Shown here: positions 21,001 to 27,000 of the stretch, piece after piece
Layout of the letters: each line of letters starts with the position of its first letter
How positions within the stretch are numbered: position 1 is the stretch's first letter
Source of the DNA: a virus
Taxonomy: Duplodnaviria > Heunggongvirae > Uroviricota > Caudoviricetes
Strand: one strand, 5' to 3'
Virus record (IMG/VR): IMGVR_UViG_2671180740_000012
DNA length: 40,166 nucleotides
Program-made: the position numbers

Positions 21001-24000
21001 TCTTTACCCCATCCGCGATGAACCATAAGGACGCCATTGACGACGGCGTGCTTTTTCGCATCTTTATCATCAATGTATTTTCTGACTGTGGCACGATTGC
21101 AGTTCAGTATTCTGGCGACTTCTGTCTGATTTCCCCTGGTGCAGATCAGTAATTCAGGTATCGTTTGAATTTTAGCATTCATCAAATGTTCTCCAGTTCG
21201 GTGATTTTTATCCCCACTCTACCGCCAGGCACTTTCACGCCGCGAATTACGCGAATGTCATCGAATTGCTCGTCGTCTTCCGCAAATCCGGCGTAGATAA
21301 GAGAGTCGAGTAAACCTTTCAGGATGTTATCGAGGTCGCGACGGCGGGAATCTGGTGGTTCAGCAATAATTGTGATGCGAAGTCGTGATTTAGTGAAAAT
21401 GTCTAATCTGAGTTGCCGGATGATTTGCTGTACGTCTTTTCGGTATTTCTGGCCTTTATCGCTGATGTAGTACTGGCTTCCCCGTCTTCGCCAGTAGGTA
21501 TTCACCGTCGGCGGCCAGGGAAGCACAAACTCATATTCATTCATGACTTAATTTTCCCCTCCTTCAGCAGTATCGCCTGCGTCCTGATCACGCCTTCCAG
21601 GTGGTAAAGTCTGGCGTCGTTGTTGTCGAGAATGCGAGTACGGCGATCGATTTCATTATGGCAGTCACTACAGGCCCATGCAGCCAACAGGTCATCTGGC
21701 TTCATTCCCGTTCCGCAAATTCCAGCCATTCGGTAATGCGCCAAAACTGTAGTTTCAGGATTGCCATTGCATACGCCATAAATCCGTACCTGGCATTCTC
21801 TGCCACGCGCTTCTTTGCGTAGGTTTGCCATCATCTTATTCCTCGTACATTGAGCTATTCGGAATGACTATTAAATCTTGCACGACGCCTTAGCCAACGG
21901 ACATCCCACAGGTGAGCCGTGTAATTGAAGGTTTTAACGTCAGATTCTTTTGGGATTGGCTTGAGTTTATTTCTGGAACGTTTCGTTGGAAGGTAATTGC
22001 AGTTTTCACAGACTATATCGGTGATGCTTCGTCGCTTTCGTCTCATTCGTACCTCCTGTCGGTAAATCTGACCCCCTGCTCCACAGCCCAGGAAGTTGTG
22101 TACTCAATCAGGCTTGCCATACGCTTCACGCTCATCTGCGCACTGCTTTCGCGGATATTGACGCATTCGCCTTCAAGACCAGGTAAAACATCGGCTTCCT
22201 GTTTTGTCGCCACGGCATGACCGCTGATCAACAAAACTTTCCACTGTTCTGGTTTTAGCCACCTGCCACACCACTGAACCTGTCGGGAGATATCAGCGAC
22301 CATCGCGTGAAATTTTGCATTTTGAGCGAGATTACGCTTGTAATCGGTGATGCGGATCGTAACGGGTTTGTCTTTATCGAGAGTTGTTGCAAGGATTGCG
22401 TTAATGGCGAATTGTTGCTGCTGCTTACTTCGGAGGAAGATAGTCTGGTTCATTATTCCCTCTCACTGGATTTTCCCAACAAAAAAGGAGCCGAAGCTCC
22501 TTTGGTTTCAGAATTCAAATTGTCTTGCCCGCAGGCTTTTCAGCATTGGCATGGCCCTCTGGACAACGGAACTTGACATGTCGAGACGTGTTACCTCCCT
22601 CAGTAGCGCGTCTCTGTTCTTCGTCACCATGTAGATAGTCTCAAACGCAATGTCATACAGCTTGTTCGTGTATGAGGAGTTCAGCTCTTTCATAATGGGG
22701 TACAGGTGTTTGCTGATGCCCTGGGCTTTTTCCATCCAGAGCTGCATGTAGCAAAGGAGGATGATTTCCTCGGCTGTGAATTGTGGCTGAATATGCGACT
22801 GCTGTTCGGTTTGTGTTGTTTTTCCCTGGCTGAAATAGCAGTCTTCCAGTTTTTCGAACACTTCCCATGCCTGATCAGTTTCGAGCATTTTTGCGTGACG
22901 GGCTGCTCCGCGTTCTGTCCAGAGGATGAGGGAGCGAACGTTACGGGCGATTTTCACAGAAGGTCTTAAAGACATGCTGTGCTTAAATTCGCGCAACTCC
23001 TCATTCTCAAGTAAAAAGTAGTGCTTACCGATAACAAATCGTCCAGAATTCCGATTGAAATTTTTTCGGATGTAATCTGGTTCTGTGCCATATAAGCTGG
23101 CAAGAAGCTCTGTAGTCACCACAGGTATATTACTAAATGAAATTATGGAGAGGGACTCCACGGAGATGGTTTTCATGCTTTGTGTCCTACTTGATATTTT
23201 GATTTACCCCTTTTGAGAGGGTGACCGGGCGCTCAAAACCGCAAGTAGTCGGCGGGCATATTCCCATTGCTGGTATTGTATTAGCCGCACGCCCGGTCAT
23301 AAACCAAGAAGACTGGACACAAAAAAAACCGCATGTCTGTCGGGCGCGGTAACCGCTACTTGCTAAGGTGTTTTGAGCACCTGACGCAGAGTATCCGACA
23401 GAATGTGTGGTGTGTCAACATTTCCTTGTGTAGATGTTGACACCCTATTAGGTAAAACATTAACGTTGTTTTAAGTTGTTAATAATCATCAATTTAATAT
23501 TAATGTTTGGAGTATAAAAGCATGAGAAAATCCCCTTTGGCATGGTATACGGATGTTCTTTTTAATAACTACTTCAATTATTCAGGGCGAGCCAGTCGAA
23601 GAGAGTTCTGGTGGTATTATCTGTTTAATTTAATATTCTTGGGAGTTCTTTTTTTTATCGGATATACATTAGATAATACTGGCATTAGTTATGGGTTTTA
23701 TATACCTTGCGTTTACGTATTAGCTACGATTATTCCATCCATTACATTGAAAGTCCGCAGACTCCATGATATTGGGTTAAGTGCCTGGTACTTGTTTATC
23801 TGGTGCATCCCGTATATTGGTGGCTTTATATTGTTCGTTATGTACTGTATCCCGTCAGAAAAAGGGGATAATAAATACGGTGCATATAGTATTTAATCCC
23901 CGCCAGATAGTCGCATCAAAAAGTACTGGTTATCTTATCTATTAGATCAAATGTCTTCTCATCAATGTACCAGTACTTTTTATCATCATTTGGGTATTCA

Positions 24001-27000
24001 ACGAAAACCGTCCATAAAACCTCTTCCTTTTTAATGAAAGATAAAAGAAAAGTCTCTATATCCTTTGAATTGTCTTTGGGAATAACTGTAATAAATGAAG
24101 TCCATTTTTCCAACTTTTTACTTTTTATCTGTTTGGCCTCCTTAGGTAGAAAAATTTTAGCATTTGATTCACGTTCCAGTCGGTCTAATAATTGTTTGGC
24201 ATATATATCAACAGGAACACTTATGTCACTTGCTTTATGACGTAATTCAATAGTTGGTGTATACTCGTTCGAAAAATAGAAAACACCATCACTGGGTGAT
24301 GTTATCAGAGTCTTTTCTAAATATGTGTATTTGTATGTTATTGGATTAAACCAATAACAGTACCATTCTGGCTTTAATTGCCCGCTATAAGATGTGTTAT
24401 TATTGTGAACCTTACACACAGGATAAATGTTTTCTATATCAGTCCACTTACTTTTATCCTCTTTTTTTTGTGTGTCTATGACGTTTGAGGAGTGTTTTTG
24501 GTTGAACACTTGAATATTTAAAAAAACTAAAAGTATGTTTCCGATAATAGATGCAATAAGCATTTTCTTCAGTTTTGAGTTATCCATATGCATCCCCTTC
24601 ATTGTGGACAATTACTCTTTGTCATAATTATAACTAAGTCATTATATTTCGTGTTTATTATGTTATAATGATATTTGAATGTATAATTATACTCCTGCAT
24701 CATTTTACACTCGACAGAATTTAATTTTTTTTGTATTTCTAGGCTCATTAAGTTTTTAATCTCTTCACCATCAAAAAATGGCGACATATCTTCATTAATC
24801 CCATAAATATTATAGTAATGATTAAGTGTATTTCCTTCTACGGTTGCAGCAATCCATGTAGTATAATCATCTACTTTAATAGGGAATTTTTTCTTGGATA
24901 GTTCATTTTTTAAGTATGAGGCAATTTTATCTGCATCTTCTTTGTTTGATAAAATATCATCAATTTTATTATCACCGAACTCAGTTGCAATTATCTTTAC
25001 AAAGATCAGCAGAATAATAAACATTAATGCTGCTCCTGTTTTTTTTATTGCTCCTAATATTTTGTTTCCTGTCATCTTGCAAATCTAACATAAAATTTAA
25101 TGAGTCTTATTAATAAATTTAATTTCTTATGAGTTGTCAACCTTCCATCAAGCAAACCGTGATCTAACAGCATGACTGTCTGCTTGATATGTGTTGTCGT
25201 CAACACAGTACAGTCCTTGAATACATATAACAAATTTGTTATGTTGATACCTATGAACTACACTATCGAATACTACAGTGAAGAGGTCCGGCTGGAAGTC
25301 GATCAGCTTCCATTGAGTATGCGTGTCCGATACAAACATCTCATTGAACGTATGAAGGTATACGGCAGCAATCTCGGAGAACCTCATACCAGCGCCTTTG
25401 GTGATGGGCTTTTCGAACTCAGAATTAAAGGCAACGATGGGATTGCACGTGTTTTTTACTGCACTCTGACAGGGAAACGCATCATTATGCTGCATAGTTT
25501 CATTAAGAAAACGCAGAAAACACCGCCAGCCGAACGCAAAAAAGCTGAAGCCAGAATGAAGGAGGTTAAGCATGACTGGTAAACGCATTACACCTACCAT
25601 GACACACGACGAAATGGCAGCCAAATGGATGGAGGATCCGGCTTTCAAAGCAGAATACGACGCCATCGCCGACGAATTCGCACTACTTGATGAAATGCTG
25701 GCAGCACGAAAAGAAGCAGGCTTAACCCAGGCTGAAGTTGCTGAACGTATGGGAACAAAAGCGACTGCGATCACCAGAATGGAAAGCAATCTTGCATCAG
25801 GTATAAGCGGCCCATCATTTGCCACACTGAAAAAATTCGCCCGTGCTACAGGGAAAAAACTCCAGATCCGCTTCGTTTAACTCTCCACTACCGCGCCGTC
25901 ATTCTGGCGGCGCTTTACCCCAGAGAAATATCAATCACCGGATTGCCACATCCCACTCCGGATCCTGCCATCTCAAATCCGGTGAATCATTTCTCGCCGG
26001 AATAACCATTACGTCCTTTTCCCTCCGCTCCCTTTCTATCGCCATCACAGCCAATGCTGCAACCATGATGTATTTTTGTTCGTCGGTTCCTGTTTCATAA
26101 CGACGCATGAGGGTAAACTCGGGGCGATCAGTAACCTCAATGATTTCGTTAATTTCTTTAATTTCGAGAGGAATATCCATGAGTTTAGTCTCCTTTGACA
26201 TTACATGCCCACACTGTTTAAAAGAGCGAGCTGTTATTGAGGCATTTGCCGAAAAACAAATTGAAAAAACACCTCTTTTTAACGTCGCTTTTGTATGCAG
26301 AAGTTGTCATCGAGGAGGTGTTGCTATTGTTGAAATCCCATCAGACCACTATCACGGCCCCATGGCGGAAAGCCAGAAAAAAGACCTCGATATTCTGATT
26401 TCAGGAAATAGCCAGTACCGTTTCCGCAAGATCTATCCTGCGGTCAAAAAAATTACCGCACCAGAATATACGCCCCCGGTTGCAGACCGTACTTTTGTTG
26501 AGGCAAAAGAGGATTTACAGAGGAGGCGGTACGACACAGTGGTAATTCTTTGTCGCAGAGTCCTCGATATCTCCACGAAAAAACTGCTCGGCGATGAAGC
26601 AGGAAAAGAATCGCTGTCGCAACGTATTCAGATGATTTACAAAAAAGGGCTGATCACTGAACAGATGAAGGAATGGGCTCATATTGTACGAATTGATGCC
26701 AATAAAGCAGTTCATACAGATGAAGTTTTCACACCAATTAAGGCAAGCCAGATCCTGAGTTTTACCGAAATGTTTTTAGTCTACGCCTTCACTCTGCCTG
26801 CAATGGTGGCAGCCAGACGTGAACAAAAAAGATCAGATTCAGCCTCTATATGAATCACTTTTCTGAACACGTAAGCCCCAGTCATTCACGACGGGGAGAA
26901 CATCAATCCCTCTGCACTCCCCCGCCAGAATGCCAGCACACGCTGCATCGTTTCGCTGTTACGGCACTCGCGACAAATTATGTTGTAGCGTCTGTCGTAG

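Follow-up and report, generated by a model that had tools for sequence, protein, structure and literature searches.

The DNA analysed here, IMG/VR virus record IMGVR_UViG_2671180740_000012, is a stretch of 40,166 nucleotides from a virus of the Caudoviricetes, and this whole stretch is referred to below as the window. Our subject is a 3.7-kb slot of cargo genes at positions 23180-26880, between the replication module and the nin genes, which a preliminary description made from the sequence had marked as an accessory hotspot. Positions 22400-28200 of the window match Shigella phage POCJ13 at 100% and Shigella phage 75/02 Stx at 99.9% identity, two lambdoid phages that convert to Shiga toxin 1 (Stx1); the window sequence itself is that of the already published phage POCJ13. 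The early-right operon lies on the minus strand, and its phage order is O (28875-29951), a DnaC-like loader, DUF1627, DUF977, the 3.7-kb slot, an ORF6N antirepressor, NinB, NinE, DUF1364, RusA, NinH and Q. The right flank of the slot is the DUF977 gene ('Ren-like' or LygF; 26886-27335, minus strand; Pfam DUF977, E value 3.6e-28; PHROG 142), the last gene of the replication module. The left edge is the antirepressor gene ant (22508-23176, minus strand; Pfam ORF6N, 2.3e-19, and P22_AR_C, 4e-7), beyond which lies ninB (22043-22453, minus strand), the first nin gene, which is annotated as NinB and shows 97-100% amino acid identity across all close relatives.

Seven genes lie in the slot between DUF977 and ant, and four of them are antisense to the early-right operon. 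The plus-strand genes encode a DUF805 protein (23522-23896; Pfam E value 1.7e-30), a HigB-like toxin of the Gp49/RelE superfamily (25253-25582; Gp49/HigB-like, 3.4e-25), a HigA-like helix-turn-helix (HTH) antitoxin (25572-25880; HTH_3, 3.4e-11) and a DUF4145 protein (26179-26853; 1.2e-8). The other three, orf231 (23916-24587), orf158 (24599-25075) and orf88 (25935-26180), are on the minus strand, had no Pfam match and matched only PHROGs of unknown function. Gene calling by the longest open reading frame (ORF) chose spurious antisense ORFs, for example 25148-25825 over higBA, and was rejected; a 3-periodic Markov coding score was used instead. The scores were above zero for all seven genes, and those of the overlapping antisense ORFs were lower or negative. 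Pfam and the coding scores thus bore out the gene content and the breaks in strand polarity reported in the preliminary description, namely four plus-strand genes among minus-strand operons, and the annotated map agreed with its assignment of minus-strand replication and nin operons to the two sides, as all the flanking genes, from O to DUF977 and from ant to Q, are on the minus strand. RefSeq gp24 of POCJ13 (about window 25140-25331, minus strand) is antisense to the 5' part of higB and is probably spurious. A tRNA scan of the slot region found none.

The content of the slot proved to be variable while its flanks are kept. Among 5,426 complete Escherichia coli genomes, at least 80% of the 3.7 kb was held by only 8, whereas the right and left flanks were present at coverage of at least 80% in 28 and 82 genomes, respectively, partial flank matches running to 2,103 and 1,171. 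Only 4 of the 258 matching phage records carried most of the stretch. Pieces of the cargo were also found apart in E. coli, as higBA with orf88 and DUF4145, as orf88 with DUF4145, or as orf88 alone. Phage PhiR5_2 has higBA, orf88 and the DUF4145 gene and lacks the rest, an island of low guanine plus cytosine (G+C) content, and phage phiSTEC1589-Stx1c has other genes at the slot. Two Stx1a prophages that have the DUF4145 and orf88 genes in common, together with a DUF977-DUF1627 flank of 99.9-100% identity, differ in their toxin-antitoxin cargo, which is HigB(PF05015)/HigA in one and ParD, a hypothetical gene and a lone HigA in the other. The invariant gene content that would mark core genes was thus not what we saw.

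To place these differences in a wider set, 80 viral contigs around homologues of DUF977 were fetched, the window proteins were mapped onto them, and the interval from DUF977 to NinB or DUF1364 was extracted in 69 loci (designated by L and a number). The intervals are 2.7-6.7 kb long and hold 83 protein clusters in 43 gene arrangements, counted as loci and not as independent events, the IMG/VR loci being redundant. In all close relatives DUF977, DUF1627, the DnaC-like gene and O are kept on one side and Ant, NinB, NinE, DUF1364, RusA, NinH and Q on the other. The cargo of the relatives was annotated by PADLOC and by a Pfam scan of concatenated cluster representatives, and matches to known defence systems were found with E values of 1e-17 to 1e-301. 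The annotated cargo comprises IetA with IetS (L065, L066), RmrT with RmrA (Rosmerta; L080, L081), KwaB (Kiwa; L039), AbiLi (AbiL; L030), PD-Lambda-2_C (five loci), HEC-06/DUF262 (L077-L079), a C5-methylase with an OLD/AriA-like ATPase (seven loci), a set of C5-methylase, Methyltransf_35 and HATPase_c_3 (six loci), adenosine deaminase with Ham1 and SIR2_2 (four loci) and a KilA-N/BstA-like protein (four loci). Transposases of IS1, IS4-like and IS5-like insertion sequences (IS) occur in the interval after DUF977 in L051, L052, L071, L077 and L079. Recognisable defence-type cargo is present in about half of the loci, DUF4145 and toxin-antitoxin genes not being counted, and at least five toxin-antitoxin families occur at the slot. 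The suggestion that this variable site may hold different systems in related prophages was therefore supported by these 43 arrangements and many known defence systems.

Some cargo of the relatives deserves mention on its own account. In L051 the cargo is flanked by two copies of IS1, and the PD-Lambda-2_C gene is truncated. The pair of clusters c13 and c14, a 184-amino-acid protein with multiple transmembrane (TM) helices and a 310-amino-acid protein, recurs (L028, L040, L052, L055-L057), as does the 300-amino-acid protein of cluster c49 (L026, L029), and none of the three had a Pfam or PADLOC match at E values of 1e-5 or below. Sitting where sister loci hold known defence systems, c13, c14 and c49 are candidates for undescribed systems.

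Pairwise alignments with the relatives located recurrent breakpoints at gene borders, namely 23394-23422, 25186, 25887, 26176 and 26927. The segment 25887-26176 (290 bp), which carries orf88, is 96-98% conserved in all close relatives (L003-L025) despite the differing cargo on both sides of it. The gene encodes a small acidic protein of 81 amino acids as annotated (PHROG 8371, E value 7.5e-56; coding score 28), and its start codon stands back to back with that of the DUF4145 gene, with zero intergenic space. We concluded that orf88 is a conserved backbone gene, with a sub-slot for cargo on each side of it. In the sub-slot towards DUF977 lies either the DUF4145 gene, a zinc-ribbon-HEPN gene resembling RAZR, or an unrelated gene of 166 amino acids, by which the DUF4145 module is replaced in L003, L006, L007 and L022. 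This module spans 26177-26926 and takes in the last 14 or so codons of DUF977; homology with the relatives that have other cargo restarts at 26927. The other sub-slot, from orf88 to ant, is almost always occupied by a toxin-antitoxin-like pair of changing family, which in the relatives is Gp49/HTH, HigB(PF05015)/HTH, RelE(PF06296)/HTH, ParD or an HVO_A0114 HTH gene, and in POCJ13 and a few relatives it holds in addition a trio of membrane-protein genes of low G+C content. In L017 the POCJ13 cargo, at 97-100% identity, stands next to a DUF977 gene of only 78% identity, and therefore cargo and flank have separate histories.

The left border of the slot needs a correction. The first 215 bases (23180-23394) of the span that had been taken as cargo are the leader of ant, which is 94-98% conserved in many Stx prophages, and are not cargo. 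Homology with relatives lacking the low-G+C island ends at 23394-23422 (at 23422 with L006) and restarts at 25186. The island itself, 23395-25185, comprises DUF805, orf231 and orf158 and is absent from the PhiR5_2-type relatives. Its G+C content of 31.6% is the lowest of any 1.79-kb stretch in the 40-kb window (mean 48.8%, standard deviation 5.5), in keeping with the sharp G+C shifts seen earlier.

The left end of the island falls inside a feature at 23390-23443, recognised by a repeat scan, a promoter scan and the end of homology, that combines an inverted repeat having TTGACA on both strands with a promoter-like site aimed at ant. The repeat is perfect, with 10-bp arms 12 bases apart (GTGTCAACAT-12-ATGTTGACAC; 23412-23443, arms 23412-23421 and 23434-23443). 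The promoter-like site, on the minus strand, is TTGACA-17-GATACT at 23418-23390; it has 10 of 12 consensus matches and points at ant. The 177-bp divergent region between orf158 and higB carries two operator-like palindromes (25190-25242), both also present in the copy of the block in L084 described below: TGTGTTG-4-CAACACA at 25190-25207 and the perfect 16-bp palindrome ATAACAAATTTGTTAT at 25227-25242, which precedes the higB ATG by 10 bp and is a putative operator at the higB promoter. Short perfect palindromes thus occur in both divergent intergenic regions, and perfect short-spaced repeats with arms of at least 8 bp number 5 as against 1.4 +/- 1.4 in resamples. The operator-like inverted repeats of the preliminary description are accordingly borne out in part; generic promoter-like sites are not enriched (9 vs 12.3 +/- 4.1 expected), a point to which we return.

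Within the conserved leader of ant, on the minus strand at 23215-23298, we found a structured RNA of the sRNA-Xcc1 family (Rfam RF02221), which scores 79.6 bits against a gathering score of 53 and matches over the full length of the model, 1-87 of 87. The match sits between the promoter-like site and the ant start codon, belongs to the backbone and not to the cargo, and may act in cis, as a leader, instead of being a free sRNA. On the other side of ant, between it and ninB, there is a terminator-like hairpin (22484-22503, minus strand) with an 8-bp GC-rich stem followed by TTTTGTT. Hence ant looks like a self-contained unit made up of the promoter-like site (23418-23390), the sRNA-Xcc1 leader, the gene and the terminator-like hairpin (22503-22484). 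The gene is itself mosaic, its N-terminal third diverging among relatives past about 22936-22996, and several relatives (L003-L005, L022-L025, L092) have a second gene of Rha/BRO type beside it. Therefore, the variable zone reaches past the left border drawn at 23180.

In the toxin-antitoxin pair of the window the toxin gene comes first and overlaps the antitoxin gene by 11 nt. The start of higB was set at 25253 because the match to PHROG 2523 begins at residue 28 of the long ORF; its counterpart in L084 was called as a gene of 109 amino acids. The antitoxin matches PHROG 1373, and its counterpart in phage PhiR5_2 is annotated 'antitoxin HigA'.

The low-G+C island carries a trio of genes for predicted membrane proteins. 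According to TM prediction, the DUF805 gene, which is convergent with orf231, encodes an inner-membrane protein with three TM helices. The product of orf231 (32% G+C; PHROG 21161 only) is a bitopic protein of 223 amino acids from the likely start, with one N-terminal TM helix. That of orf158 (27% G+C) is likewise bitopic, having a single TM helix at the N terminus and a domain, predicted to be periplasmic, whose model is confident and has a strong structural match to the PA3611/AspS fold (PDB 3npd, 4ftf and 5zdh). The coding scores of orf231 and orf158, 61 and 58, are the highest in the region. Both genes are rare: orf231 is an orphan confined to E. coli, the two genes account for three and two clusters, respectively, among 5.8 billion proteins, and orf158 had 10 matches in an exhaustive search of 1.84 billion representatives. 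No further relatives of orf158 were found in species-representative genomes, and a scan of viral contigs returned known loci only. Weak HMMER matches to orf158 (P0094, P0096 and P0097) were treated as non-homologous, their contexts being unrelated. The DUF805 gene is missing from the RefSeq NC_025434 annotation, which has a 740-bp gap there, and is annotated by PGAP in E. coli genomes.

The trio or parts of it recur in other prophage contexts. In L084-L088 the whole block 23308-25882 (2.6 kb; DUF805, orf231, orf158, HigB and HigA) is found at 87% nucleotide identity, with amino acid identities of 97%, 52%, 92%, 94% and 98%, respectively; it sits there among the early-left genes of a different prophage, with Ead/Ea22-type genes on one side and AntA, MT-A70 and integrase on the other. 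In L089 and L090, DUF805 (80%) adjoins orf158 (66%) downstream of a cI-type repressor and an Eco57I/BsuBI restriction system, orf231 being precisely absent and higBA absent as well. The counterparts of orf158, orf231 and DUF805 in L093 and L094 have only 29%, 28% and 45% identity and keep order and orientation at 31.8% G+C; their place is between a DnaC-like gene and Q, where a RelE(PF06296)/HTH pair is divergent from them. The same trio is divergent from a Phd/PIN pair in L103, and in L095 and L096 a relative of orf158 with a YecR-like lipoprotein is divergent from HigB(PF05015)/HTH, downstream of Q. As the gene order is kept at about 28% identity, we argue that the three genes form a functional module. 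The cargo is not all independent, for DUF805, orf231, orf158, HigB and HigA move as one block; the slot does contain several cargo genes, but to call them independently regulated was too strong, five of them (23308-25882) travelling together and three forming a module. It is possible, though we hold it to be less likely than the contrary, that orf158, orf231 and DUF805 make up one undescribed prophage-borne envelope system, for superinfection exclusion or as a membrane effector of abortive infection, which moves among at least three prophage hotspots and is perhaps functionally tied to the toxin-antitoxin pair divergent from the trio in four of the five contexts.

The DUF4145 gene at 26179-26853, antisense to the early-right operon, encodes a protein of 224 amino acids with an N-terminal Cys4 zinc ribbon and a C-terminal DUF4145/HEPN domain. 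It has 83 homologues, nearly all from Enterobacterales, and the 44 that were aligned all have residues C10, C13, C40, C43, R171, N175 and H179. The AlphaFold2 model (predicted local distance difference test score, pLDDT, 90) shows four beta strands over residues 4-52, and the profile of the family also touches RPB9 zinc ribbons. The defence protein PD-T7-4, now renamed RAZR, is a zinc-finger and DUF4145/HEPN RNase with catalytic residues R146 and H154, which assembles around phage portal or Gp77 rings and aborts infection, and for which a resemblance to RPB9 zinc ribbons has been reported as well (PMC13017515). The window protein is RAZR-like in architecture and in its probable mechanism, that of an anti-phage RNase. 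A DUF4145 protein 40% identical to that of the window is encoded in L095 (5419-6069) and in L096 at another prophage hotspot downstream of Q, where it is accompanied by an Ail/Lom gene, an acetyltransferase, a Bro-N gene and, next to a HigB/HTH pair, a member of the orf158 family.

Away from the slot, the O gene and the sequence immediately upstream of it contain direct repeats of 41-49 nt (in four, three and two copies; 29216-29301 and 29982-30134). In two ORFs these specify repeated QQHQPQQPEAD peptides; the repeats could belong to an origin, in the manner of iterons, or result from a partial duplication.

We consider it very probable that the stretch is one copy of a known accessory and defence-gene slot of lambdoid prophages, situated in the early-right operon from the replication module to the antirepressor and nin genes, whose cargo is swapped by backbone recombination and probably protects the lysogen. 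This reading draws on the position, flanks, variability and breakpoints that we observed and on the domain content and conserved gene order of the cargo. A fixed backbone region of odd composition might be supposed instead, as the whole 5.8 kb is 99.9-100% identical in POCJ13 and 75/02 Stx and as orf88 and the ant leader are conserved. We regard this as next to impossible in view of the observed variability, since most of the stretch is carried by so few of the phage records (4 of 258) and E. coli genomes (8 of 5,426), since other genes occupy the site in prophages with identical flanks, and since the related loci show 43 architectures. Nor is it easy to see the low-G+C genes orf231 and orf158 as decaying or non-functional foreign DNA. 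They do lack a family in Pfam, NCBIfam and PADLOC, and they are extremely restricted in distribution (to 8 of the complete genomes), but their coding scores are the region's highest, homologues of as little as 27-29% identity retain intact frames, order, orientation and the DUF805 partner, and orf158 has a confidently predicted fold with a strong structural match, all of which makes decay very unlikely.

How the cargo arrived is a separate matter. A single discrete mobile element, be it a transposon, an integron-like cassette or a site-specific island, would account for the recurrence of the 2.6-kb block in one piece among the early-left genes of another prophage, for the transposases of IS1, IS4 and IS5 in the same interval of some relatives and for the foreign G+C content of the island. 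However, no integrase or transposase was found in the slot interval of the window, and no long or terminal inverted or direct repeats were found at 23308/25882 or 23395/25185; the breakpoints vary among relatives and lie at gene borders inside shared backbone segments, and orf231 is itself a nested insertion or deletion. We therefore think such an element improbable and favour recombination in shared backbone segments, by which the cargo would be exchanged through DUF977, the orf88 segment, the ant leader and ninB. Recombination of this kind is the classical modular exchange of lambdoid phages. Somewhat less improbable, though still unlikely, is the view that the Gp49/HTH pair is not a toxin-antitoxin or defence module and is instead a phage regulator pair, the HTH protein of which controls the divergent promoters of neighbouring cargo or of ant. 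It gains from the fact that a toxin-antitoxin-like pair is divergent from an orf158-family gene in four contexts with four toxin families, and from ant in relatives without the island, and that the palindromes lie in the shared intergenic region and are retained in the L084 copy. Yet the layout is that of a standard HigBA module (toxin first, 11-nt overlap, palindrome just upstream), the pair varies in family next to constant neighbours, as selfish swappable modules do, and L089 and L090 have orf158 and DUF805 without such a pair.

Several points weigh against our reading of the site as a swapped defence slot. The genes of the related loci were called with a home-made Markov model, which was trained on long ORFs from the fetched loci. 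The figure of 43 arrangements in 69 loci overstates the number of independent events, and in the more distant loci the interval extends to DUF1364 and takes in some small nin-type genes. The lack of enrichment of promoter-like sites belongs here too. The DUF4145 family profile aligns with the RAZR chain 9y9c_OA over the linker and the RIxxNxAVH motif at an E value of only 0.1, the PADLOC model of PD-T7-4 matches the protein marginally (E value 0.0017, 15.8 bits), and phmmer of the protein against PDB sequences gave no match. Expression in the lysogen, antisense shut-off and the defence role of the cargo are all inferred.

The slot as a defence site would work in the following way. Four cargo genes run antisense to the pR operon and are served by palindromic control regions of their own; they are thus likely to be active in the lysogen, at a time when pR is repressed. 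After induction, antiterminated transcription from pR would over-run the cargo antisense. The cargo would protect the lysogen from other phages: the HEPN protein may be an abortive-infection RNase triggered as RAZR is, HigBA may be an abortive-infection or prophage-stabilising module, and the membrane trio might have its effect at the envelope, superinfection exclusion being one example.

Stx phages spread Shiga toxin, and cargo directed against rivals of an Stx prophage would affect the persistence of the lysogen and which phages can recombine with lysogens. One defined site of the backbone serves as a swap-shop for defence systems and can be located by three anchors, DUF977, orf88 and ant/ninB. 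The slot is thus a practical place to mine for new systems, as the P2 and P4 hotspots were used, and it offers two concrete candidates, a prophage subfamily of RAZR architecture and a rare three-gene membrane module with conserved order.

The site has already been recognised as a place of accessory genes in lambdoid prophages (PMC13043305), with which the slot shares its position in the early-right operon, conserved flanks, variable and defence-rich content and a single-gene HEPN protein. For P2, P4 and other prophages, defence hotspots have been well described, and no systematic survey of the exact slot in Stx-type phages was found in the literature. What is new here is the cargo catalogue for the DUF977-type backbone, the layout of two sub-slots around orf88, the subfamily of RAZR architecture at the site and the membrane trio; as the type of slot is known, the trio is the only new lead as a system, and the best one. 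The sRNA-Xcc1 family has been described upstream of an ORF6N gene in APSE phages (PMC7313666), and the full-length, above-threshold match in the window likewise lies directly upstream of an ORF6N gene; in Xanthomonas integrons, by contrast, the RNA precedes symE, whereas here it is in the apparent mRNA leader of ant. The HigB-HigA pair resembles HigBA type II modules in having the toxin first, an overlapping HTH antitoxin gene and a palindrome directly upstream of the start, and differs from them in lying antisense inside a phage operon, where it is interchangeable with HigB(PF05015), RelE(PF06296) and ParD pairs in sister phages. In its predicted model orf158 shares the fold of PA3611 and of the type II secretion pilotin AspS, at only about 11-13% identity; unlike them it has an N-terminal membrane anchor and no lipobox or lipoprotein signal, and it has no secretion-system neighbours, being paired with DUF805 and orf231 among prophage genes. 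With RAZR (PDB 9y9c) the DUF4145 protein has in common its length (224 vs 219 amino acids), an N-terminal CPHC...CxxC zinc ribbon, a C-terminal DUF4145 domain of HEPN fold and the same Arg-x7-His spacing in R-I-x-x-N-x-A-V-H, to which R171 and H179 align. It differs in that the sequence similarity is only marginal, and the window gene represents a separate Enterobacterales subfamily that is borne by prophages at this slot.

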